Assembly (NCBI GenBank): GCA_034659075.1 | Contig: JAYEGM010000194.1 | Location: forward strand, 10,577-67,625 | Direction: 5' to 3' | From: Pseudomonadota bacterium | GTDB taxonomy: Bacteria; Pseudomonadota; Gammaproteobacteria; BMS3Bbin11 | Length of the DNA: 57,049 bases | Part shown: one piece after another, positions 4,542 through 57,049 of the stretch | How the letters are laid out: every line of letters starts with the position of its first letter | How positions within the stretch are numbered: position 1 is the first letter of the stretch | Notes under the pieces: model-generated | The model's input: the letters and a program-made list of their open reading frames with translations, nothing else | Databases searched by the model: none | Told to the model about the DNA's origin: nothing | Translations under genes and position numbers: made by a program

Positions 4542-6407
4542 TTAAGCATCAAGTTCTTCCCATCGTGAGTAAGCCATTTCCAGCTCACTATCAATTTCTG
4601 TAAGTTTTTTCTGATCTTTGGCTATATCTTCTTTAGCATGTTTAAAGTAATCCGGATCAGCCATGCTGTCATGTAGCGCCAGCTGAGCCTGTTCCAGCCG
4701 TTGAATCATCTGCGGCAGTTCATCCAGTTCCCGCTGTAGTTTATAACTGAGTTTCAGCTGTTTTTTGGCGACCGTTTTAGCAGCAGCTGATTTTTTTGCC
4801 GGTTTTTTTTCTGCTTTTGCGTCTGTTCGTTGCCGCATCCAGTCATCATAACCGCCAACATATTCATCGATTACGCCATTACCCTCAAACGACAGGGTAG
4901 ACGTCACGACGTCATTGATGAAGCTGCGGTCATGGCTGATCAGCAGCAGGGTTCCCGTGTACTCGATCATCAGTTGTTCGAGCAGGTCCAGGGTTTCAAA
5001 GTCCAGGTCATTGGTGGGTTCATCCAGTACCAGCACATTGGAGGGGCGGCAGAACATTTTGGCCAGCAGCAGGCGATTTTTTTCACCGCCGGACAGGGCA
5101 TTGACCGGGCTGCGTGCCCGGTCTGGAGCAAAAAGAAAATCCTGCAGGTAGCTGATGACGTGCTTCTCACGACCATTGATCGTTACCGAGTCCTTACCTA
5201 GGGCAAGGTTGTCGATCACCGTCGCATTATCATCCAGCTGCGCACGCTGCTGGTCAAAATAGGCAATATCCAGACGGGTACCGTGTTTTACGGTTCCTTT
5301 CTGTGGCTGCAGTTCTCCCAGCAGCAGCCGCAGCAGGGTGGTCTTGCCCACGCCGTTGGGTCCCAGCAGACCAATCTTGTCACCGCGCATGATAGTAATA
5401 GAAAAGTCTTTGACTATCGGCTGCTCATCATAGGCGTAGCTGATATTTTCCGCCTCGATGACAATTTTTCCTGATTTTTCACTCTGCTGGATAGCGAGGT
5501 TTACATTGCCCACACGTTCACGCCGTGCTTTGCGCTGCCGACGTAATTCTTCCAGCGCCCTGACGCGGCCTTCGTTGCGAGTACGCCGGGCCTTGATGCC
5601 CTGGCGTATCCAGGTTTCTTCAGCCGCCAGTTTTTTGTCCTCCAGCGCCTCATTTTTTAGCTCCGCAGACAGCATCAGCTCACGGTTCTTACGGTATTCA
5701 TCATAATCACCCGGCCAGGAAGTCAGCTGCCCCCGTTCCAGTTCAATGATGCGTGTCGCTAGCCGCCGGACGAAGCGTCGATCATGCGAGACAAAAACCA
5801 GCGTAGTATTTTGTGCCAGCAGGAAGTCCTCCAGCCATTCAATCATGCTGATATCGAGGTGGTTGGTCGGTTCGTCCAGCAGCAGAATATTGGGTTCCTG
5901 TACCAGCGCACGGCCAAGCAGAACGCGACGGGACTGGCCACCTGACAATGAAAGAAAATCCTCATCACCGTTAAGCAGTAGTTTTGATAATACGATTTCT
6001 ATACGCTGAATGTAGTGCCAGGCGTTTGCAGAGTCTATTTTTTCCTGCGCCTGATGCATACGATCCATGCTGGCCGGGTCGCCTGTCTGCTGACTGTAGC
6101 GGTGATAGTCATTAATGTGCTTGCCAATATCGCCGAGGCCGGATGCAATAACTGCATAATTCGTACCGCTGATATCTCCGGCAACATCCTGAGACATGCG
6201 GGCGACCACCAGACCAGAACGAAACTGGATTTCGCCGGAATCAGGCAGAACTTCTTTAGTCAACAGTTTTAGCAGGGTGGATTTGCCGCAGCCATTGCGG
6301 CCCAGCAGGGCAATGCGCTCACCCTCCTCGATGCGGAGGTTGATGTTTTCCATCAGGGGGGGGTGACCGAACCCCAGGGTGATGTCGCGGAGGGTGACGA
6401 GACTCAT
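4542..6407 (-). CDS. uup: ABC-F family ATPase, Uup-like
   Basis: 621 aa with two ABC cassettes (Walker A GRNGCGKST and GPNGVGKTT; signatures LSGGQ and LSGGE). No TM domain. Charged C-terminal coiled-coil tail. Confidence 0.88.
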   Translation of the reverse strand: MSLVTLRDITLGFGHPPLMENINLRIEEGERIALLGRNGCGKSTLLKLLTKEVLPDSGEIQFRSGLVVARMSQDVAGDISGTNYAVIASGLGDIGKHINDYHRYSQQTGDPASMDRMHQAQEKIDSANAWHYIQRIEIVLSKLLLNGDEDFLSLSGGQSRRVLLGRALVQEPNILLLDEPTNHLDISMIEWLEDFLLAQNTTLVFVSHDRRFVRRLATRIIELERGQLTSWPGDYDEYRKNRELMLSAELKNEALEDKKLAAEETWIRQGIKARRTRNEGRVRALEELRRQRKARRERVGNVNLAIQQSEKSGKIVIEAENISYAYDEQPIVKDFSITIMRGDKIGLLGPNGVGKTTLLRLLLGELQPQKGTVKHGTRLDIAYFDQQRAQLDDNATVIDNLALGKDSVTINGREKHVISYLQDFLFAPDRARSPVNALSGGEKNRLLLAKMFCRPSNVLVLDEPTNDLDFETLDLLEQLMIEYTGTLLLISHDRSFINDVVTSTLSFEGNGVIDEYVGGYDDWMRQRTDAKAEKKPAKKSAAAKTVAKKQLKLSYKLQRELDELPQMIQRLEQAQLALHDSMADPDYFKHAKEDIAKDQKKLTEIDSELEMAYSRWEELDA

Positions 6408-10617: not shown

Positions 10618-11714
10618 TGAGTGATGAAGAAAATACCGCACCTGAAACTGTAAAGAAAGGAACTGCCGGCATCCTGCTGGTGATATTTATAAGTCTGACC
10701 TGGTATCTGACTTCTGACCGTTACACACCTTACACACAACAGGCGCGGATTCAGGGTTTTGTCGTCGGTGTCTCACCCAAGGTCGCGGGAGTAGTGACCA
10801 AGGTATGGGTTAAAAATAATGAAACCGTTGTAGCTGACCAGCCCTTATTTGAGATTGACCGCTCCCAATATGAGATCGCTCTGAAACAGGCCCAGTCTGG
10901 CCTTGAAAATACACAAAACCAGATAGGTGCGGGTACTGCCGGGGTCGAGTCTGCAGAAGCAAATCTTCTCGCGGCTAAAGCCAATGAAAAAAAAGCAGAA
11001 CAGGATGCAACACGCCAGGAGCGTTTGTACAAAGAAGACAAGGGCGCTATATCTGTGCGGCGACTGGAGATGGCACGCGCTACTTTAGCGCAAACGCAGG
11101 CGAATGTTTCAGCAGCCAGTGCAGAAGTCGAGCGTGCCAAAGAGCAAAAAGGCGGCGAGGGTGAGGATAATGCCCAGCTTAAATCAGCACTCAGCGCACT
11201 GGAGAAAGCCACTCTTGATCTTGAGAACACCGTGGTCAGGGCAAGTTCACGTGGAGTGATTACCGATCTACGTGCAGATGTCGGCCAGTTTGCCGGTACC
11301 GGCAACCCGGTAATGACACTGATCGCGATCCAGGATTTCTGGATCAGTGCAGAATTTACTGAAAATAATTTAGGGCACATGGAGGTGGGGACGCCTGTGG
11401 AAATTGTTGTCGATGCTATTCCCGGTAGTGTATTTAAGGGTAGCGTCCACAGCATTGGCCTGGGCGTTGCAGCAGGGCAGCCACCACCTGCTGGAAACCT
11501 GCCTACTATCGACAATAATCGAGACTGGCTGCGTCAGTCGCAACGTTACCCGGTCATGATTAAAATTGACCCGGCTCAGAGTGAAGAACTGCGTGATCAC
11601 GTACGCATCGGTGGCCAGGTGGAAGTCATGGCCTATACTGAGAAAGCCTGGCTGCTGAAGTTGATAGGAAAAATGTATATCCGTGTGATGAGTCTGTTCT
11701 CTTATGCCTATTAA
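10617..11714 (+). CDS. HlyD family membrane fusion protein
   Basis: 365 aa. N-terminal TM, lipoyl-like hairpin (VTKVWVKNNETVVADQPLFEID), long coiled coil, beta-barrel C-terminus. The start overlaps the upstream stop by 1 nt. Confidence 0.88.
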   Translation: MSDEENTAPETVKKGTAGILLVIFISLTWYLTSDRYTPYTQQARIQGFVVGVSPKVAGVVTKVWVKNNETVVADQPLFEIDRSQYEIALKQAQSGLENTQNQIGAGTAGVESAEANLLAAKANEKKAEQDATRQERLYKEDKGAISVRRLEMARATLAQTQANVSAASAEVERAKEQKGGEGEDNAQLKSALSALEKATLDLENTVVRASSRGVITDLRADVGQFAGTGNPVMTLIAIQDFWISAEFTENNLGHMEVGTPVEIVVDAIPGSVFKGSVHSIGLGVAAGQPPPAGNLPTIDNNRDWLRQSQRYPVMIKIDPAQSEELRDHVRIGGQVEVMAYTEKAWLLKLIGKMYIRVMSLFSYAY

Positions 11715-19686: not shown

Positions 19687-20790
19687 ATGAGTACTTTTGC
19701 CGGAGCTGAAGATTTTAAACACGATAAGCAGGCCCGGATAGGCGTTATGCTGGTCAATCTGGGCACTCCGGATGACACATCGGTTAGTGCTGTGCGTCGC
19801 TACCTTGATCAGTTTCTGTCTGATCCCCGAGTAGTAGAATTCCCCCGTTTTCTATGGTGGCTGGTGATGCATCTGTTTATTCTGCGTTTCCGGCCACGCA
19901 AGGTTGCACAGGCATATAAAACTGTCTGGCGGCCGGATGGATCTCCGTTACTTGTTTATTCACAGGCACAGTCAGATGCCTTACAGGCTGCGCTTGACGG
20001 ACATTTTCCTGAACGCTACACGGTTTCTCTGGCAATGCGTTATGGTAAACCGGCGATCCATGAGGTGATGGAAAAATTTCGGCGGCAGCATTGCCGCTAT
20101 CTGCTGGTCATTCCAATGTTTCCACAGTATTCGGCAACGACCACGGCTTCAGTTTTCGATGAAGTAGCAGGTATATTGAAATCATGGCGCATGCTGCCGC
20201 AGCTGCGTATGCCCATGCATTACCATGACAGGTCTTCATATATAGAAGCGCTGGCAATGAGCGTAGAGGCAAGCTGGCAGAAAAATGGCAGAGGGCAGCA
20301 GCTGTTAATGTCATTTCACGGCCTGCCGCAACGTTATCATCGTGCCGGTGATCCATATTATTGTGAATGCATGAAAACAGCGCGTTTACTGGCAGACCGT
20401 CTGGGGCTGGAAGGCCCTGACTGGCAAGTTGTATTTCAATCACGCTTTGGTCGTGAGCCCTGGCTGCAGCCTTACCTGGATAAAACACTCAGTAAACTGC
20501 CCGCATCTGGCGTTAAGTCTGTCGATGTGATCTGCCCGGGTTTCGCAGCAGATTGCCTGGAGACGCTGGAAGAAGTGGCAGAGCAGAACAGAGACTTCTT
20601 TTTTAAAGCAGGTGGAGAGCGCTTTCAGTATATACCTGCACTTAATGATCAGGCAGGGCATATCAATATGCTGGTTGAAATGGTGGAAAATGAAACACGG
20701 CAATGGATGGTAGAATTGGAAAGGTATAATGATCCGGATCAGACAGAGAAAAGACTGCAACAGGCTATCAGCCAGGGTGCAGAAAACTAA
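19687..20790 (+). CDS. hemH: ferrochelatase
   Basis: 367 aa with ferrochelatase motifs (GVMLVNLGTPD, MRYGKPAI, LVIPMFPQYS, SFHGLP). Confidence 0.93.
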   Translation: MSTFAGAEDFKHDKQARIGVMLVNLGTPDDTSVSAVRRYLDQFLSDPRVVEFPRFLWWLVMHLFILRFRPRKVAQAYKTVWRPDGSPLLVYSQAQSDALQAALDGHFPERYTVSLAMRYGKPAIHEVMEKFRRQHCRYLLVIPMFPQYSATTTASVFDEVAGILKSWRMLPQLRMPMHYHDRSSYIEALAMSVEASWQKNGRGQQLLMSFHGLPQRYHRAGDPYYCECMKTARLLADRLGLEGPDWQVVFQSRFGREPWLQPYLDKTLSKLPASGVKSVDVICPGFAADCLETLEEVAEQNRDFFFKAGGERFQYIPALNDQAGHINMLVEMVENETRQWMVELERYNDPDQTEKRLQQAISQGAEN

Positions 20791-21749
20791 TGAGGGAAGA
20801 TATGATCAAAGCGAACCTGGTGGCAGTAGTTTTATTTTTATTATCGTTTAATGTCTTTGCCGGTACGCCAGTGCCGGATTATAAAGCCGAGAAAGTGGCT
20901 GAACATACCTATGTCATTTTCGGACCAACAGAGAGGCCCAATCCTGAAAACCTGGGGTTTATGAACAATCCGGCAATAGTAATCGGCAGCGACAGCATCA
21001 TAATCATCGACCCGGGTTCCAGCCTCGAATCCGGGCGCATGGTGTTACGGCAACTTAAAAAACTGAGCTCCAAACCCGTTTCACATGTCTTTGTTAGCCA
21101 TGTACACGGTGACCACTGGCTCGGAAATCAGGCCATACGTGAGCAGTACCCGCAAGCAAAATTCTATGCCCATCCTGAGATGATCAAAAAGGCAAAGGAG
21201 TCAGAAGCTGAAGCCTGGATTAATCTGATGAGTAAATTGACCGAAGGGGCAACGGAGGGTACACGTGCAATCATCCCTGAAAACATACTATCCGAAGGGC
21301 AGGTATTTTCAATCGCCGGGCTTACTTTTAAGATTCACATCATGCCTGCAGTACATAGTTATACCGATGCGATGATTGAAGTGGTAGAGGATTCCGTAAT
21401 GTTTACCGGTGATAATGTGACCTATAAGCGCATTGGCAGATTTGATGATGGCACCTTTAAAGGCACGATTACGATGGCTGACAAAATAATTTCACAGGAT
21501 TATAAGCACTATGTCCCGGGCCATGGCCCGGCGGGTGACAAAGCCATCGTTGAAGATTTCAGGCGTTACGTGGTAACACTGTATGAAACTGTCGCAGCTT
21601 TGTATGAAGAAGGGCTTTCAGACTTTGAAATGAAGGAGCAGGTGGTAGCAACGCTTGCTGCTTACAAAGACTGGTCAGGTTTTGAGGAAGAAATAGGGAA
21701 ACATATCAGCCTGGCAATTCTGGAGGCAGAGGAAGCGGCCTTTGAGTGA
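20790..21749 (+). CDS. secreted MBL-fold metallo-hydrolase
   Basis: 319 aa. N-terminal signal peptide. HVHGDHWLG (HxHxDH) motif. The start overlaps the hemH stop by 1 nt. Confidence 0.85.
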   Translation: MREDMIKANLVAVVLFLLSFNVFAGTPVPDYKAEKVAEHTYVIFGPTERPNPENLGFMNNPAIVIGSDSIIIIDPGSSLESGRMVLRQLKKLSSKPVSHVFVSHVHGDHWLGNQAIREQYPQAKFYAHPEMIKKAKESEAEAWINLMSKLTEGATEGTRAIIPENILSEGQVFSIAGLTFKIHIMPAVHSYTDAMIEVVEDSVMFTGDNVTYKRIGRFDDGTFKGTITMADKIISQDYKHYVPGHGPAGDKAIVEDFRRYVVTLYETVAALYEEGLSDFEMKEQVVATLAAYKDWSGFEEEIGKHISLAILEAEEAAFE

Positions 21750-22107
21750 GTTTTTGTGCTGGCGCATGGCAAATTGTTTCGACTTTAATTTGGTACGTTC
21801 TTTATTTTTTATTTCTTGAATTGATTTTTGTACCAAAAGAAAGAGCACACGCATGCTTGCCCTACGGGTTCCCTGCGATGCTCAGATAAGCTGGCGGGGT
21901 GTGAAACTCGCTGCTCAGACAACACACCCCGAAACCTCCAGCTCATCCTGCGCTTCTTGGCAAGCCTGAACGGGACGGAAAGGCAAAGACACGAGACTAA
22001 AGACTAAGGACAAAAGAAAAGTCAAAACCGTCCTTCCGGCAGTCCTCTAGCCGGGATCCGTCTGCTTAAAGACACCCTGGATACCAGCCTACGCCGGTAT
22101 GGTAATT
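21750..22107 (+). repeat. modular intergenic repeat, copy A (head at stop codon of MBL hydrolase gene)
   Basis: Head GTGCTGGCGCATGGC at 21756-21770, 7 nt after the stop. ATTTCTTGAATTGAT at 21811-21825. The ~145-nt core matches copy C at about 125/145 positions by my hand alignment. Heptamer-phased spacer, then a palindromic tail at about 22028-22103. Confidence 0.85.
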
Positions 22108-22621
22108 TAAAAAGAAGGTTTTGATTCTTCTTTTGTCTTTTGTCCCGTATCCTTAATCTTGTGTTTTTGACCTCTCACCCCCTTTTGGGTTGTCGAGCAC
22201 TGGAAGGCTGGGCCGGATAAAGCGCGGTGCATGTCTGAGCGAAGCGAGTTCACCGTGCCCGGTTCAGACTGAAGCGCACAGAGCAGCCGCAGGCCAACCC
22301 TTCGGGGCGGTTTTTCTTTGGTTCTGTATGAGTAATTCAAAAGACTAAATCCGCAGGAAGCGGATTTGAACAGTCGAAGACTGGCCCGAAGGGTGAAGGC
22401 CATAGATGGCCTGAATAAATGAACTCGCGTATGAAGCGCGAAACCATCAGCTAAGGTCTAGCAAAAGAATAAAAAATCAGATACTCGCCCATAAAGGGCG
22501 AAAAGTTCATATCAATTCATGAAATAGAATAAAAAAAGATCCCGCGCATGAAGCGCGAAACCTTCGGTAGTGGACTTGCACAAGAATAAAAAAGAAGTGA
22601 ACCAGCCGTGCGCCAGCACTA
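22108..22621 (-). repeat. modular intergenic repeat, copy B (inverted; head overlaps stop codon of the MlaC-like gene)
   Basis: The reverse complement carries the same module order. Head GTGCTGGCGCACGGC (22605-22619), ATTTCATGAATTGAT (22511-22525), hairpin TCGCCCTTTATGGGCGA (22485-22501, identical to copy C), a diverged core, and a heptamer-phased spacer. Confidence 0.8.
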
Positions 22622-23227
22622 ATAAAGCGTTTCCAGCCCACCCTGTCGTGCACGTGCATTAAACATTTTGCGATAATAATTGACCGCACTGATGCCATTT
22701 GTGCTGACATCAAAGATCAGCCATCCGCGAGGCGTACGGTGGAAAGAAAACCGGACATCAATCGGGTAGCTATTGGCAGGAAACACGCGTGCAGTGACAT
22801 CAACTTCGTTTTCCTCGATTTTTCGGGGAGGCATAAAACGGACTTCCGGCATATTGCCGGCGTAACCGCCTACGATCTCTGCTAATGATGAGAAAAATGA
22901 TTTGGCGAGCTTTATGGTGAAGGCCTTGCGTTGTTGCGGATCCATTTGACCGTACCAGTATCCGCCAGACCAGCGTGCCAGTGCCTGGGTATCGAATTGC
23001 GGGGCGATGCGTGCGCGAATTAATCCAACAAGAGCCTCCTGATTGCCTGCCTGTTCACTGTTGAGGAAAGCCTGCAGGTCTTTTATGCCACGCCGGAGCA
23101 CCGCATCAGGTGCCGGGCGCAGCTGTGTCTTGCCGGCACTGGATGTGGCGTAGGACGTAGACTGCTGGGCAAGGCTTATGCCGGGAAGCAGGAGCAGAGT
23201 AAGCAGGACAGGGAGAAGTTTTTTCAT
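22619..23227 (-). CDS. MlaC/Ttg2D-like periplasmic lipid-binding protein
   Basis: 202 aa. Signal peptide. MlaC-like pattern, including a C-terminal WLIFDVSTNGISAVNYYRKMF block. Confidence 0.68.
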   Translation of the reverse strand: MKKLLPVLLTLLLLPGISLAQQSTSYATSSAGKTQLRPAPDAVLRRGIKDLQAFLNSEQAGNQEALVGLIRARIAPQFDTQALARWSGGYWYGQMDPQQRKAFTIKLAKSFFSSLAEIVGGYAGNMPEVRFMPPRKIEENEVDVTARVFPANSYPIDVRFSFHRTPRGWLIFDVSTNGISAVNYYRKMFNARARQGGLETLY

Positions 23228-45481: not shown

Positions 45482-48157
45482 ATGACCATGAATAAGACAT
45501 CGCATATGAAACATAAAAAACAAACCGGCACAGCAATTATTCTTGCAGGGCTACTATGTACATCAGGAATTGAGGCGGCTGAGCTATCAGCATTGCACTG
45601 GAAATCCTCGTTAGGCGAAGACGCTGTTATCGCTATTGTCGATGAAAAGGTAAAGGTGAAAACCTCGGAACTTGATGGAGGCAAACGGTTGCGTGTCAGC
45701 TTCCCCTCCACAAGCATGGCAGCGGACTTAAAGCCACTGTCTGGAATGGGGCTGGTCAAATCAGTCGAAGCGACTAAGGACAGCAAGTCAGTGCAAATTG
45801 ACCTTGTTACCAGTATCCCTGCTCATATCAGTGTTATCTCGGTGCCCGGTGGTTATCGGATCAGTACCGAGCCTGCCGTTAGCACCGCACCCATTGCAAA
45901 ATCCGGTCCGACAGTCATTCCACTGGCTATGACCTCTGATATTACCGGGGCAGCGGCAGTTACAGCTGAGCCTGTGGTAGTAGAACCTGCAGCAACAATG
46001 TCTTCAGGTGATGAAGCGGTCAGCTTAAACAAGATCAAGCAAATTACGTTTAGTAGAATTAGCGGTGGGCGTACGCAGGTAAACATTGAGATGGATGCGC
46101 GGCCACAGGAACCTGCGGTATTCGTGACCAAAAACCCGTCCAGGATTGCGATGGACTTTTTTGGTACCCGAAACGGATTAGCTAAAGATACTGTAAAGGC
46201 AAGCGAAGGGGTTCTGCACAGCATTAATGCCGTAGAAGTGGCCGATCGTACCCGGGTAATCCTCAACCTCGATCGGAATGCAGCGTATCAGACGGAAATA
46301 ACGGATAGTGGCCTGACGTTGATACTTGATCCAGATGCAATCAAAACAGCCTCCGGTGCAACGGCAAAGAGCAGGAAATTCTCAGTCAGCACCAAGACCA
46401 GGGCGCATAAAATTGACGGTGTGGATTTCAGGCGTGGGCCACAGGGTGAGGGGAATATAACAGTTACCCTGTCTGACCCGGAAGTCGGCATTGATATCGA
46501 CGACGAGAAAGGCCAGGTAATTATTGATTTCAGCAAAACAGCGCTTCATGAGGATCTTGAGCGCCGTCTTGACGTTATTGATTTTGCTACGCCCATCCAG
46601 ACCATTGATACATTCAGGGAAGGATCAGGGACCAGGATGGTGATATCAGTCAATGGCCAGTATGAGCAAATTGCCTATCAGACAGGTAATACCTTTACTG
46701 TCAGTGTGCGCCCGTTGACAAAGAACGAAATAAAGGAGGAAGACGAATTCGGCTACTCCGGCGAGCGCCTGTCGCTGAATTTCCAGAAGATTGACGTGCG
46801 ATCCGCACTGCAGGTGATAGCGGACTTTACCGGCCTGAATATTGTTACCAGTGACACGGTAAAGGGTAGCTTAACCTTACGCTTGCAGGATGTGCCCTGG
46901 GATCAGGCGCTGGACCTAATACTAAAAACCAAGGGCCTTGCAAAACGTGAAAAAGGGAACGTTGTCTGGATCGCGCCGGCAAAAGAGATCGCCGCACGGG
47001 AAAAAGCTGAACTGGAAGCATTGAAGAAAACGCGCGAACTTGAGCCCCTTATTTCTGAACTAATAGAAATAAATTATGCATCGGCTTCGGATATTGCAAA
47101 GTTGTTGAAATCGATCAAGGCAATTGACGGTCCGTTCTCGCAGAACACCCAGGGCAACCCATTTTCCTCGGTCTCAGTCAATGATATACCAACAGAATCA
47201 AACAGCCTGCTGTCCGAACGTGGCAGTGTGACGGTTGATGATCGTACGAATACATTGCTGATTCAGGAGACACCCTCAAAAATCAAGGAAATAAGGAAGC
47301 TGATTGCCAAGCTTGATCAGCCTGTAAAGCAGGTATTGATCGAGACACGCATCGTTGAAGCAAGAGACGGTTACAGCAGAACGCTGGGTGTACGCCTGGG
47401 GATGCAGAATCTAAACAGCAACTTTAACCTAGGTAACAGTGACAACTCGGCCGGTGAGGGAATTACTTCTGGTTCTCTGGAAGGCGCGGTAAACATGCAT
47501 AATGCATTTAATAACCCTACAGAAGGCGGAGATATTGAAGTAACAGGCGATGGCCTGAACGTCGACCTTGGTTCGGCGGGTCTGGGTAATTTCCTGGCCA
47601 GTTCCATTGCTTTCACCCTGGCAAAATTTGCCGACGGCTATGGTCAGGTGCTTGGTGTTGAACTGCAGGCCTTGCAGGCTGAGGGCAAGGGTAAGCTGAT
47701 CTCCAGTCCGCGCCTGATTACTGCCAACAATATGGAAGCACATATTGAACAGGGTCAGGAGCGAATATTTACCACCAATGTCCTTGGTGTGGGCAGCGTA
47801 GTTACCAAAAAGGCTGTACTGGGCTTAACCGTGACACCTCATATCACACCGGATAACAGGATCATCATGGATGTTTTCATAACCAAGGACAGTTTCACCT
47901 CTCCAATTGATCCAACCATCGACAAGAAGGAGATCGAAACCCAGATATTACTGGACCATGGAGAAACGGCTGTAATTGGCGGAATTTTTCAGCAAAATAT
48001 AGGTGAAGATGTGACGAAAGTACCGTTATTGGGTGATCTGCCTGTATTGGGTGTGCTTTTCCGGAATAAAAGCATTACCGATCAAAAGACAGAGTTATTG
48101 ATATTCCTGACTCCAAAAATCATTACGCCATCGTTTGGCCTGCTTGGCGGTAGCTGA
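45482..48157 (+). CDS. pilQ: type IV pilus secretin PilQ
   Basis: N-terminal AMIN-like repeats, N0/N1 region (LSLNFQKIDVRSALQVIADFTGLNIV), secretin core (VLIETRIVEA ... GGIF ... VPLLGDLPVLGVLFR). I prefer ATG 45482, which has an upstream purine-rich stretch, to TTG 45449. Confidence 0.93.
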   Translation: MTMNKTSHMKHKKQTGTAIILAGLLCTSGIEAAELSALHWKSSLGEDAVIAIVDEKVKVKTSELDGGKRLRVSFPSTSMAADLKPLSGMGLVKSVEATKDSKSVQIDLVTSIPAHISVISVPGGYRISTEPAVSTAPIAKSGPTVIPLAMTSDITGAAAVTAEPVVVEPAATMSSGDEAVSLNKIKQITFSRISGGRTQVNIEMDARPQEPAVFVTKNPSRIAMDFFGTRNGLAKDTVKASEGVLHSINAVEVADRTRVILNLDRNAAYQTEITDSGLTLILDPDAIKTASGATAKSRKFSVSTKTRAHKIDGVDFRRGPQGEGNITVTLSDPEVGIDIDDEKGQVIIDFSKTALHEDLERRLDVIDFATPIQTIDTFREGSGTRMVISVNGQYEQIAYQTGNTFTVSVRPLTKNEIKEEDEFGYSGERLSLNFQKIDVRSALQVIADFTGLNIVTSDTVKGSLTLRLQDVPWDQALDLILKTKGLAKREKGNVVWIAPAKEIAAREKAELEALKKTRELEPLISELIEINYASASDIAKLLKSIKAIDGPFSQNTQGNPFSSVSVNDIPTESNSLLSERGSVTVDDRTNTLLIQETPSKIKEIRKLIAKLDQPVKQVLIETRIVEARDGYSRTLGVRLGMQNLNSNFNLGNSDNSAGEGITSGSLEGAVNMHNAFNNPTEGGDIEVTGDGLNVDLGSAGLGNFLASSIAFTLAKFADGYGQVLGVELQALQAEGKGKLISSPRLITANNMEAHIEQGQERIFTTNVLGVGSVVTKKAVLGLTVTPHITPDNRIIMDVFITKDSFTSPIDPTIDKKEIETQILLDHGETAVIGGIFQQNIGEDVTKVPLLGDLPVLGVLFRNKSITDQKTELLIFLTPKIITPSFGLLGGS

Positions 48158-48186: not shown

Positions 48187-48223
48187 AAGCACTGTGACCT
48201 TGTGGGGCACAGTGCTTTTTTTT
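48187..48223 (+). terminator. Rho-independent terminator after pilQ
   Basis: AAGCACTGTG (48187-48196) pairs with CACAGTGCTT (48208-48217). The loop is 11 nt. A T-run continues to 48223. Confidence 0.75.
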
Positions 48224-55593: not shown

Positions 55594-56619
55594 GTGATGA
55601 CATTAAACAAACTGCCCCTCATCGCATTATTGCTAACTGGTTTTACGCTACCTGTGAGCGCTTCAGCGAGCAGTCTGCAGCTAGTCAAAAAGTACGGGGC
55701 TGTCCGCTGTGGCATCAATGAAAACCTGCCCGGTTTTGCTGAAAAAAATAGCAAAGGAGAATGGTCAGGACTGGATGTGGATTTATGCCGTGCAGTCGCT
55801 GCTGCCGTATTCTCCGATGCCTCAAAAGTAGAATATATCCCGGTCTCAGCGACAGACCGTTTCAAGTCACTGTCTTCAGGGAAGTTCGATATTCTGTCAC
55901 GGAATACGACGTGGAACCTGTCGCGTGATACCGGAATGAAAATCACTTTCACCGGCGTCAATTACTATGATGGCCAGGGCTTTATGGTGCCTGTTGAATC
56001 CGGCATACGCAGTGCTCTGGAGTTGAATGGTTCGACCATTTGCGTAGAGAAAGCCACGACACATATCGGTAACCTGAAGGACTATTTCCTGCTCAATCGG
56101 ATGAAGTATAAAGCCAAGTCCTTTGACTCTGCACAGGCCTCGTTACAGGCTTTTGAAAAGGGGGAGTGTGATGTCATTACCTCTGACCAGTCATCATTAT
56201 ATTCATTGCGCACAAAATTAAAGAACCCAAAGTCTGCCAAGGTTCTTGCAGAAATAATTTCTAAAGAACCTTTAGGCCCTGCTGTTGCTGTAGGTAATTC
56301 AAACTGGGCAAAGATCGTCCGCTGGAGCCTGTTTGTAATGCTGGATGCTGAAGAGGCCGGCATTTCAGCAGGTAATGTGGATCAGGTCAGGAAGATATCA
56401 CGTGTACCGGCAGTTCGCCGTTTGCTCGGACTCGAAGAAAACTCGGGCAGCAGTCTTGGGCTGAGCAAAGACTGGTCATACAACATCATCAAGCAGGTGG
56501 GCAATTATGCCGATTCCTTCGATCGCAATGTGGGGAAGGGGTCGTCGCTTAAAGTTAAGCGTGGCTTGAATGCTCTGTGGCGGGATGGTGGATTGCATTA
56601 TGCGCCGCCGATTGATTAG
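55594..56619 (+). CDS. amino acid ABC transporter substrate-binding protein (AapJ/BztA-like)
   Basis: 341 aa. Signal peptide. Family-3 SBP pattern (VRCGINENLPGFA, FDILSRNTTWN, DVITSDQS). GTG at 55594 or ATG at 55597. Confidence 0.88.
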   Translation: MMTLNKLPLIALLLTGFTLPVSASASSLQLVKKYGAVRCGINENLPGFAEKNSKGEWSGLDVDLCRAVAAAVFSDASKVEYIPVSATDRFKSLSSGKFDILSRNTTWNLSRDTGMKITFTGVNYYDGQGFMVPVESGIRSALELNGSTICVEKATTHIGNLKDYFLLNRMKYKAKSFDSAQASLQAFEKGECDVITSDQSSLYSLRTKLKNPKSAKVLAEIISKEPLGPAVAVGNSNWAKIVRWSLFVMLDAEEAGISAGNVDQVRKISRVPAVRRLLGLEENSGSSLGLSKDWSYNIIKQVGNYADSFDRNVGKGSSLKVKRGLNALWRDGGLHYAPPID

Positions 56620-57049
56620 GTTTTTTGTGCTGGCGCACGGCTGAGGGTTTTGTCCCTCACTGGCGTATAGCCTTCTTTTCATTCTATTTCTTGAATTGAT
56701 ATGAGTTTTTCGCCCTTTATGGGCGAGTGACTTTTCTTTGCTTGCCCAAAGCAAAGTAACCAAAAGAAAAGGCACCCGCATGCTTGCCCTTCGGGTTCCC
56801 TGTGATGCTCAATTGAGCCGGCGGGATGTGAAACTCGCTGGCGCTCAGACAACACATCCCGACACCTCCGTCTCAATCTCCGCTTCTCGGCTAGCCTGAA
56901 CAGGACTTTAAGGTCAACATCAAAAAGCAAGCCCAAAAACTAGGTGCCAAAAAACTCAAAATTCACCGTCATTCTGGCATGCTTCCAGCCGGAATCCATC
57001 TTATTAAAAAAATCTGGATACCGGTCTACGACGGTATGACAAAATAATA
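56620..57049 (+). repeat. modular intergenic repeat, copy C (head at stop codon of the SBP gene; runs to window end)
   Basis: Head GTGCTGGCGCACGGC at 56627-56641, 7 nt after the stop. ATTTCTTGAATTGAT at 56686-56700. Hairpin TCGCCCTTTATGGGCGA at 56710-56726. Core with hairpin 56822-56861. Palindromic tail at 56968-57040. Confidence 0.85.

Follow-up and report, generated by a model that had tools for sequence, protein, structure and literature searches.

A nearly palindromic mosaic repeat between convergent genes of a gammaproteobacterium, with a core whose hairpin-tip motif recurs in at least six phyla

The 870 bases that separate a metallo-beta-lactamase (MBL)-fold gene on the plus strand from a converging MlaC-family gene on the minus strand (positions 21750-22621) lie in a 57,049-nt stretch of gammaproteobacterial DNA, here called the window, which was analyzed as a whole. 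The gap is tentatively read as one copy of a nearly palindromic mosaic repeat of 0.5-0.9 kb that holds no open reading frame (ORF), resembles repetitive extragenic palindromes (REPs) and bacterial interspersed mosaic elements (BIMEs), would be non-autonomous, and would have cores active as single-stranded DNA (ssDNA); this reading falls a little short of being probable. The copy consists of two inverted arms, arm A next to the MBL gene and arm B next to mlaC, that meet at a central palindrome; a third arm, copy C, lies at 56620-57049 on the plus strand, where it is cut by the window end, and was recovered by its motif, by nhmmer and by covariance model. Each arm contains a core of about 155 nt (155-165 nt) whose hairpin tip is conserved far beyond the Gammaproteobacteria. 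Related loci are cited below by our L numbers.

The consensus structure derived from twelve A-type cores, on the strand complementary to the adjacent gene, is a three-way junction. GCTTGCC pairs with GGCAAGC in its closing stem, the junction strands are conserved, the long arm is composed of a stem P2, a bulge and a stem P1, and a third hairpin is 9 nt long in the majority of copies but reaches 25-33 nt in L005 and L004; ten compensated pairs were counted among the twelve. A first-pass annotation of the window had announced a structured core of about 145 nt and had overlooked the conservation of its cap across phyla. The tip of the long arm is a 27-nt motif, GTG-Y-TGTCTGA-GCG-N(1-2)-AGC-GAGTT(T)-CAC, in which an asymmetric internal loop with tandem G.A pairs is followed by a mini-stem of 2 bp under a GNA or GNNA loop. 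Of the 118 instances, 113 have a cap that conforms to GCGNAGC or GCGNNAGC; copy A of the window, with GAGCAGCGAG, is an exception. Diverged copies lend support to the mini-stem with a double change from C-G to U-A and with a GG/CC extension.

The P1 stem below the cap comprises 8-10 contiguous base pairs in 76 of the 118 instances and is represented by at least 15 distinct sequences. When 38 sequences were aligned, 91.4% of the P1 cells were paired, as against 59% after shuffling and 34-50% in slid controls, a percentage that is inflated by the pre-selection of this alignment for at least seven contiguous pairs. The covariation score reached 0.81, as against 0.18, and no shuffle out of 500 attained 0.81. 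In the window the corresponding covariance model (R1) recovers the three copies that were expected, and these alone, at 45-54 bits; it also finds further diverged copies elsewhere. The apical hairpin of core A, with the short cap variant, occupies 21894-21932 on the minus strand (45.3 bits, E = 2.5e-10), that of core B, which bears the cross-phylum motif, lies at 22220-22260 on the plus strand (51.8 bits, E = 3.6e-12), and that of copy C at 56821-56862 on the minus strand (53.9 bits).

An exact-pattern scan with one genome per species returned at least 114 stretches, where roughly 9 would be expected by chance on a rough estimate, and the tip motif was found on covarying stems in Pseudomonadota, Bacteroidota, Ignavibacteriota, Acidobacteriota, Melainabacteria and Bacillota, that is, in at least six phyla. 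Among the matches listed, the holders include Arenicellales, Thiofilum, Marinobacter, Methylophaga, Methylophilaceae, Variovorax and Acidovorax, then Chitinophagaceae/Sediminibacterium, Bacteroides luti, Proteiniphilum, Ignavibacteria, Thermoanaerobaculia and Gastranaerophilales, and also Blautia, Lachnospiraceae, Cellulosilyticum, Anaerostipes, Finegoldia and Anaeroarcus; BLAST added Ralstonia (128 replicons, many of them at similar coordinates), Delftia, Comamonas, Achromobacter and others. In all of these groups a long imperfect hairpin carries the motif at its tip, and the stem sequence is unrelated from one group to another. No Rfam 15 family scored above threshold in the window, in the gap or in the hairpins of 15 loci from other phyla, and no motif match was found in E. 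coli or among 2.9 million viral contigs of IMG/VR. Among the sub-threshold Rfam matches in the gap, sX14 (17.7 bits against a threshold of 80) was dismissed as a generic terminator hairpin or a chance match. One phage, the N4-like Pseudoalteromonas phage pYD6-A (JF974296.1, 11473-11494; L125 1201-1222), matches 22 of 23 loop nucleotides (GACTCGCTTCGCTCAGACAACAC) in an intergenic position past a terminator, where the P1 stem on either side is lacking; the match may mark a promoter, as N4-type phages use GCGNAGC-like hairpin promoters, or it may be due to chance.

Several of these distant carriers reproduce more than the hairpin. On the megaplasmid of Ralstonia pseudosolanacearum GMI1000 (NC_003296.1, about 302.9-303.5 kb; L119 1330-1880), a tail-to-tail pair of arms whose modules come in the same order sits between an alpha-amylase-family gene and a convergent ORF without Pfam match, each arm presenting a head-like TTTGGTCTTGGTGGTGCATC soon past the stop codon, a TTTCG...CGAC hairpin, a ACTTTCTTTG/CAAAGAAAGT hairpin and the capped long hairpin. 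The pair carries no annotation, which says little since the PLSDB record lists only two features for the whole replicon. Ralstonia replicons hold the element in one to four places each, at conserved coordinates. Bacteroides luti DSM 26991 (NZ_FQTV01000003.1, 128-136 kb; L087) has three ORF-less inverted-pair elements within 8 kb, at L087 1-628, 1976-2812 and 6635-7181; their arms likewise carry a TTTTCTTTTGC/GCAAAAGAAA hairpin beside the core, and their centers hold repeated GCCGAGCGAAGCAAAGC together with CCGTCAC-RAA-GTGACA hairpins. Among ten Chitinophagaceae/Sediminibacterium species (L006, L026, L027, L029, L056, L066, L079, L084, L088 and L102), the convergent gap between purC, which encodes SAICAR synthetase, and a rhodanese-domain gene is almost filled by the capped hairpin, and in three of the ten the whole hairpin is inverted relative to purC.

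The eight copies in a Blautia metagenome-assembled genome (MAG; CAYTNV01, including L007, L022, L041, L051, L052, L092 and L110) are about 95% identical outside one 8-bp helix, GCAGATAT[N8]CAAAC ... GTTTG[N8']ATATCTGC, which differs in every copy and yet is fully complementary; the L051 copy has one mismatch just beside this variable helix. The helix may be a specificity determinant, or it may be the sole part that is free to drift. A similar variable helix, tag-NNNNNN-tgt / aca-NNNNNN-ctg, was observed in the Gastranaerophilales copies.

The two strands of the hairpin are not equivalent. The strand carrying TGTCTGAGCG... gives the more stable fold in 92 of 109 instances, and, with the arms compared as a DNA palindrome, transition mismatches that would form G.U or G.T wobbles favor this strand by 270 to 168, or by 64 to 26 when counted by instance (binomial p about 1e-6, a value uncorrected for phylogeny). 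Fold stability and wobble bias together argue that the hairpin is selected as a single strand. In the window the folding strand is antisense to the neighboring gene in both arms, so that the folding strands point outward from the center. Across phyla the motif lies between convergent genes in 22 cases, between tandem genes in 24 and between divergent genes in 5; within the tandem gaps it reads in the sense direction 13 times and in the antisense direction 11 times. No sigma-70-like promoter was found in the gap, where 1.2 would be expected, and the center of the composite gave none with at least 9 of 12 matches; the TTGACC/TTGACT boxes upstream of the cores have, on reading, no -10 partner. 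The distribution of gap orientations, the sense/antisense parity, the flipped Chitinophagaceae hairpins and the absence of promoters all argue against an RNA acting in the sense orientation within a 3'-untranslated region (3'-UTR). Such a role, which had been raised for the repeat at the outset, is not favored for the core, whose better fold is that of the strand antisense to the gene beside it. The same observations fit either an element that acts at the DNA level or an RNA produced by read-through from either convergent gene.

The gap had been described as two copies of a multi-module repeat placed tail to tail. The inverted layout is real, but the two copies are more accurately one composite, arm A followed by a central REP dimer and by the inverted arm B. 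With nhmmer, A-type and B-type cores were found to face each other tail to tail in the window and in L068, L083, L054, L063, L061, L008, L099 and L117, loci that belong to Arenicellales and unclassified gammaproteobacterial MAGs, in the mirrored order HEAD-TBOX-HP-ABOX-core-GGTCAA / GGTCAA-core-ABOX-HP-TBOX-HEAD (the letters standing for head, T-rich box, hairpin unit and ACCAAAGAAA box). Since the A/B pairing is repeated at no fewer than eight other loci, it is not the outcome of two independent insertions. The order of the modules inward from each head, namely head, T-rich box, hairpin unit, ACCAAAGAAA box, core and A-rich spacer, was confirmed in A, B and C and in 12 related loci. Copies A and C are 76% identical over 283 nt, and copy B is a diverged subtype.

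In arm A, a T-run and the head (GTGCTGGCGCATGGC at 21756-21770) occupy 21751-21770 on the plus strand, as recognized by sequence reading and motif count; the T-rich box ATTTCTTGAATTGAT follows at 21811-21825 (+; repeat analysis and module scan), and the ACCAAAAGAAAG box with the A-type core spans 21830-21984, in plus-strand module order and with the core folding on the minus strand (nhmmer family and consensus structure). The A-rich spacer at 21985-22027 (+) is weakly phased with a period of 7 (TRF 21994-22017, score 34), and its counterpart in arm B, T-rich on the plus strand (22104-22165, -), shows the same period (TRF 22129-22144, score 32), so that the heptamer phasing previously noted is present, if weak. 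Arm B continues with the B-type core and its AACCAAAGAAAAA box at 22166-22330 (minus-strand module order, core folding on the plus strand; nhmmer), and then with an extra hairpin module of about 85 nt that only this arm has (22335-22420, -) and is also found 3' of mlaC in L001 when the two are compared by reading. Three units of about 60 nt, each a hairpin followed by TTTTTTATTCT, come next (22414-22593, -; repeat analysis and terminator scan), as had been reported from the first inspection; the T-rich box lies at 22511-22525 (-; repeat analysis and module scan) and the head, GTGCTGGCGCACGGC, at 22605-22619 (-; sequence reading and motif count). The parts of copy C are the head at 56627-56641, a T-box at about 56688, a hairpin at 56708-56728, a polypyrimidine/polypurine hairpin at 56733-56775, an A-type core at 56759-56913 and a REP dimer at about 56966-57040.

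The hairpin and T-run units of arm B look like intrinsic terminators on the mlaC sense strand. A consensus scan counted six terminator-like sites in the gap, against 1.9 +/- 1.7 in shuffles, and five of them are on the minus strand, which is the mlaC sense, inside arm B; the best, at 22565-22535, has 13 pairs followed by TTTTTATTCT.

The head is the most stable piece beside the stop codons, and yet elsewhere it is optional or duplicated. GTGCTGGCGCAYGGC occurs exactly three times in the window, at 21756 (+), 22605-22619 (-) and 56627 (+); with up to two mismatches there are four matches in the 57 kb, against 0.28 expected, and 0 of 100 shuffles reached four. Each exact head starts at most 8 nt from the stop codon that ends a gene of at least 200 aa and is oriented like that gene: head A starts 7 nt past the TGA at 21747-21749 and head C 8 nt past the TAG at 56617-56619, and the first G of head B is the last base of the mlaC TAG stop, at 22619. 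That both convergent genes have a head adjoining their stop codons therefore stands, and copy C behaves likewise; the gap is also bounded, as claimed, by terminal inverted repeats, the arms measuring 18 nt (21753-21770 / 22605-22622) and being 89% complementary. The 1-nt overlap between head B and the TAG codon is real but is not the typical state, being a small deletion variant, for in L001 and L003 the head lies 11 nt past the stop. Across loci this distance varies between 1 and 14 nt. Among 22 arms with a scorable outer neighbor, 19 face the 3' end of a gene in the orientation of that gene and the remaining 3 face a 5' end. In L054, L117 and L068 heads are also present internally, as tandem modules, and L002 is headless. 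The association of heads with stop codons is thus far from random and is retained in orthologs, a strong tendency rather than the strict placement that the first-pass annotation had proposed.

The palindrome at 22028-22103 had been taken as the tail in which the two copies meet. The palindrome exists, but it is not the arms' own tail; it is a separable REP dimer, formed by two inverted hairpins of which the first is CGTC-tagged, CGTC-CTTCCGGC...GCCGG with the tag at 22029-22032 and its inverted partner ATACC(A)GC-CTAC-GCCGGTAT, and it was delimited by reading and by comparison of loci. The same CGTCAT-tagged dimer stands at the center in the window, copy C, L054, L083 and L008, and a GTAG-tagged palindrome takes its place in L068, L061 and L063, which all come from another genome. 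Because the central REP is of CGTC or GTAG type according to the genome, the dimer is a secondary, separable insertion at the center of the composite. The two types match the CGTC and GTAG super-families of REPs, and REP dimers placed at the center of larger palindromes have been documented (PMC3733652). Only 22028-22103 shows the short tagged imperfect palindromes of 20-40 bp in an inverted dimer that characterize REPs; the unit as a whole does not qualify as a REP or BIME, its core, polypurine hairpin, T-box and head carrying neither a GTAG nor a CGTC tag.

Comparison of orthologous gaps shows that the composite is an insertion relative to more distant relatives. In L123 the mlaC/MBL gap is 60 bp long and holds a canonical bidirectional terminator; it measures about 230 bp in L120-122 and about 810 bp in L004, where it contains one A-type arm, while that of the window reaches 870 bp. 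In L122/L121 (6680-6800) the 230-bp gap contains a different hairpin repeat, GCTGTGTTTT...GACGCAGAAGCCGAGCCCACATGGACGTGTTCACGGCGTCTGC...AAAACACAGC, adjoining a canonical terminator. Turnover is also apparent among close relatives: L001, L002 and L003 encode an identical MlaC, yet their sequences differ directly past the stop codon, where L001 has a head, a hairpin and the extra module followed by unrelated DNA, L003 has a head and a full arm until the contig terminates inside the core, and L002, without head, has an IS481-family transposase gene within a B-type core 3' of mlaC (10720-11070). The copy C locus is likewise a convergent gap, between an SBP gene and hemE; one ortholog of it, 89% identical, keeps the head 4 nt past the TAG and has other REP types and an inverted A-type arm inside, and another shows a head-like sequence, the spacer directly after it and then the contig end. 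In L126, a third REP type, TGTGGGAGGCGCG(C/T)CC..CGCGGCGAA, occurs twice in the SBP/hemE gap (5130-5230 and 6020-6060), once in place of the expected A-type core, and a 64-aa Cys-rich ORF (5726-5920, -) lies between the element and hemE. Modules are therefore gained, lost or duplicated among close relatives, in agreement with the BIME-like mosaic that had been suggested.

The alternative that had been offered, a large MITE (a transposable element of the miniature inverted-repeat class), found less agreement. Terminal inverted repeats are present; however, no target-site duplication was found in the window flanks (...GAGTGAGTTTTT / TAATAAAGCG) or in those of L054 and L068, the only empty-like site, L123, being too divergent for a base-level comparison, and no autonomous transposase-bearing relative was found. 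No transposase or other protein recurs beside the 118 instances, and a comparison of their flanking ORFs, all against all, yielded only orthologous housekeeping neighbors. The IS481 gene of L002 is an unrelated insertion.

Mosaic extragenic repeats at gene 3' ends are already well known, and the element has to be placed among them. It resembles REP, BIME and REPIN sequences, which are mobilized by RAYT (TnpA-REP), in being extragenic with a preference for gene 3' ends and convergent gaps, in its mosaic of alternating hairpin modules, in having inverted doublets as unit, in its turnover between strains and in its spurious ORFs, and the central 22028-22103 is a CGTC-tagged dimer of the kind known from REPs. 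It differs from them in its arms, which are 300-450 nt long, untagged and built on a three-way-junction core of about 155 nt instead of 20-40-nt palindromes, and in being conserved at the hairpin tip rather than at the foot, with a tip that is kept across phyla, whereas REP families are specific to a species or genus. REP hairpins located within about 15 nt of stop codons reportedly stall terminating ribosomes (Liang, Rudd and Deutscher, Mol Cell, 2015); the GC-rich head GTGC-TGGC-GCAC is similar in lying 1-14 nt past the stop and in being kept in orthologs, but its hairpin, formed in head A by the possible pairing of GTGC with GCAC, has only 4 bp. With MITEs (ERIC/IRU, Correia, RUP) and with the R-family repeats of P. 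fluorescens (PMC2718517) it shares the lack of ORFs, a size below 1 kb, terminal inverted repeats and the potential to form long hairpins, and the "tail-repeat-tail" bias in location reported for the intergenic repeats of P. fluorescens (PMC2718517) is seen here too; unlike MITEs, it has no target-site duplication or cognate transposase, its ends are optional, and its conservation peaks in the middle of the arm and not at the termini. Integron attC sites also lie directly past the stop of the upstream gene, co-oriented with it, fold on the strand complementary to the coding one and conserve structure above stem sequence, but the neighbors here are syntenic housekeeping genes instead of cassettes, there is no integrase, and R''/R' boxes (RYYYAAC / GTTRRRY) were not seen on reading. 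Other candidates were rejected by eye: a hammerhead (CUGAGCA misfits CUGANGA, and GAAA is absent), a canonical K-turn (the bulge and the C-stem geometry misfit), the 38-bp inverted repeat of Tn3 (CGCTCAG, AAACTC and CGTTAAG are in common, but in permuted order and non-terminal) and a parS half-site.

For the mosaic repeat with ssDNA-active cores, the following mechanism can be proposed. Each arm, oriented like the neighboring gene, presents a head mini-hairpin, hairpin and T-run units, a polypyrimidine/polypurine hairpin (the ACCAAAGAAA box) and the core; the cores would be recognized as single-stranded hairpins by a factor encoded elsewhere in the genome, and their position on opposite strands would ensure that one is always presented. 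Recombination between copies would reshuffle the element, the outer hairpins standing in for the displaced terminator would make it tolerated at gene 3' ends, and its center would have attracted the REP dimer specific to each genome. That ssDNA rather than RNA is the active form, that an enzyme acts in trans and that the outer units terminate transcription is what we infer. Several points weigh against this proposal. There is no target-site duplication and no sharp common end, and heads are optional; as no protein recurs beside the 118 instances, the mobilizing factor is hypothetical. The low copy number and stable position in Ralstonia and Chitinophagaceae look more like a retained functional element than like junk, and the copy-specific compensated helix of Blautia argues for selection on each copy; these two features and the conserved three-way junction are more typical of functional RNAs than of junk. 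To these are added that the terminator assignment comes solely from a consensus scan, that the conservation of the loop was partly ascertained by an exact-match search, and that the covariation alignment was pre-selected as stated.

It is possible, although doubtful, that the cores are instead a new class of structured non-coding RNA, transcribed antisense to the neighboring gene, with the surrounding mosaic secondary. Transcription would reach the core by read-through from the opposite convergent gene, or would start within the T-rich center at a promoter that escaped detection, and the capped three-way junction would serve as binding site for a widely conserved cellular factor or would take part in RNA processing or in the formation of 3' ends. 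The conserved junction strands with a third hairpin of variable length, the tandem G.A pairs with GNA/GNNA loops, the enrichment of G-U pairs on one strand, the strong covariation over six phyla, the retention at orthologous loci and the fully compensated Blautia helix all speak for an RNA, and CTTTCTTTTGG, a U-rich tract, comes after the core on the folding strand. On the other hand, the gap yielded no sigma-70-like promoter, the tandem contexts reveal no preferred transcriptional orientation, the hairpin is flipped in three of the ten orthologous Chitinophagaceae loci, and no Rfam family matches the version of any phylum. The sharing between sense and antisense contexts would suit the reading that the inverted pair is, by analogy, a signal for initiation or processing on ssDNA like ssiA/ssiB of IncQ plasmids (single-strand initiation sites) or G4-type primase sites, a possibility that we consider improbable. 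Each core would then be a hairpin active on one unwound DNA strand, its GCG-N(1-2)-AGC cap an SSB-resistant mini-hairpin marking the site for a primase or another ssDNA enzyme. GCGNAGC and GCGNNAGC are extraordinarily stable DNA mini-hairpins found at the complementary-strand origins of G4, ST-1 and alpha3, in ssiA of RSF1010 and in N4 promoters (PMC13037366). The likeness to the RSF1010 and G4-type signals extends from the cap consensus, which nearly all instances fit including the 1- or 2-nt loop, to the paired hairpins on opposite strands, seen in Gammaproteobacteria, Betaproteobacteria and Bacteroidota, and the heptamer-phased A/T-rich spacers flanking the center would also suit such a signal. 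The case is however purely analogical: the elements are chromosomal, have no replicon context and much larger hairpins, are dispersed at ordinary gene 3' ends by housekeeping genes with no primase or replication gene nearby, are absent from viral contigs, where such signals are best known, and their G.A/GNA caps suit RNA equally.

Two ordinary MITE copies that landed independently, tail to tail, with the contact to stop codons as a by-product of a short ancestral spacer, would account for the 18-nt terminal inverted repeat, for the small, ORF-less and multicopy nature of the element, for the contig breaks at the element in L003 and L127, and for an ancestral spacer of only about 60 bp. This we regard as very improbable, given the A/B pairing at the other loci with A and B consistently of different subtypes, the lack of a target-site duplication and of a parent insertion sequence, and the head that is kept beside the stop in orthologs while the inner modules change. 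A broader view, which is conceivable but unlikely, would take the cores as an uncatalogued class of structured single-strand elements, ancient or widely transferred. They would then form a new family of non-coding RNAs that has a conserved cellular partner, or else be what an unrecognized hairpin-dependent DNA transaction acts on. The class would be defined by ORF-less inverted arms in which a polypyrimidine/polypurine hairpin accompanies either a long bulged hairpin or a three-way junction, by the invariant cap GTG-Y-UGUCUGA-GCG-N(1-2)-AGC-GAGUU(U)-CAC, by a presence from Bacteroidota and Bacillota to Proteobacteria, and by a structure selected per copy, as the copy-specific compensated helices indicate. 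The capped hairpin or three-way-junction module and the inverted-pair architecture are not in Rfam, and no description of them was found in the literature on REP, R178 and ssi sequences; parts of the element may nevertheless belong to published repeat families such as the P. fluorescens R-families, for instance R178 or R200.

If the reading of the gap is right, an intergenic repeat of a kind usually dismissed as junk would hold a module that bears the marks of a folded nucleic acid with a function, namely stems that covary, an invariant cap, folding specific to one strand and its retention at orthologous sites, in at least six phyla and outside the standard RNA catalogue. Cultured carriers are available for its study in Ralstonia GMI1000, Bacteroides luti DSM 26991, Marinobacter koreensis DSM 17924 and Thiofilum flexile DSM 14609. 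The element also breaks metagenome assemblies and yields spurious ORFs, and its replacement of the terminators of convergent genes would affect both annotation and 3'-end biology.

An example of such an ORF is the 98-aa frame at 22107-22403 (-), a spurious reading of core B. The homolog search returned ten weak and partial matches of 72-171 aa that form no family, and the frame has no Pfam domain, as expected for the artefact of the repeat that it had been suspected to be. The flanking genes are the MBL-fold hydrolase at 20790-21749 (+, from the ORF list), on whose ortholog in L004/L120 Pfam Lactamase_B was found, and the MlaC-family ORF at 22619-23227 (-), whose homologs carry PF05494. In the loci of MlaC homologs the gap is embedded in the synteny fmt, rsmB, a two-component pair, trkA, trkH, ycgN, mlaC / MBL, hemH. 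A search for tRNA and tmRNA genes found none. The extra module at 22335-22420 consists of three small hairpins, one of which, CCGCAGGAAGCGG, shows GGA in its loop; its resemblance to an RsmY-like RNA (17.5 bits against a threshold of 57) was rejected as probably due to chance. The only other sub-threshold match of the hairpin model in the window (13 bits) is a perfect 10-bp palindrome, AAGCACTGTGC..ACAGTGCTT, at 48187-48217, which follows an ORF ending at 48157 and is probably an ordinary terminator.

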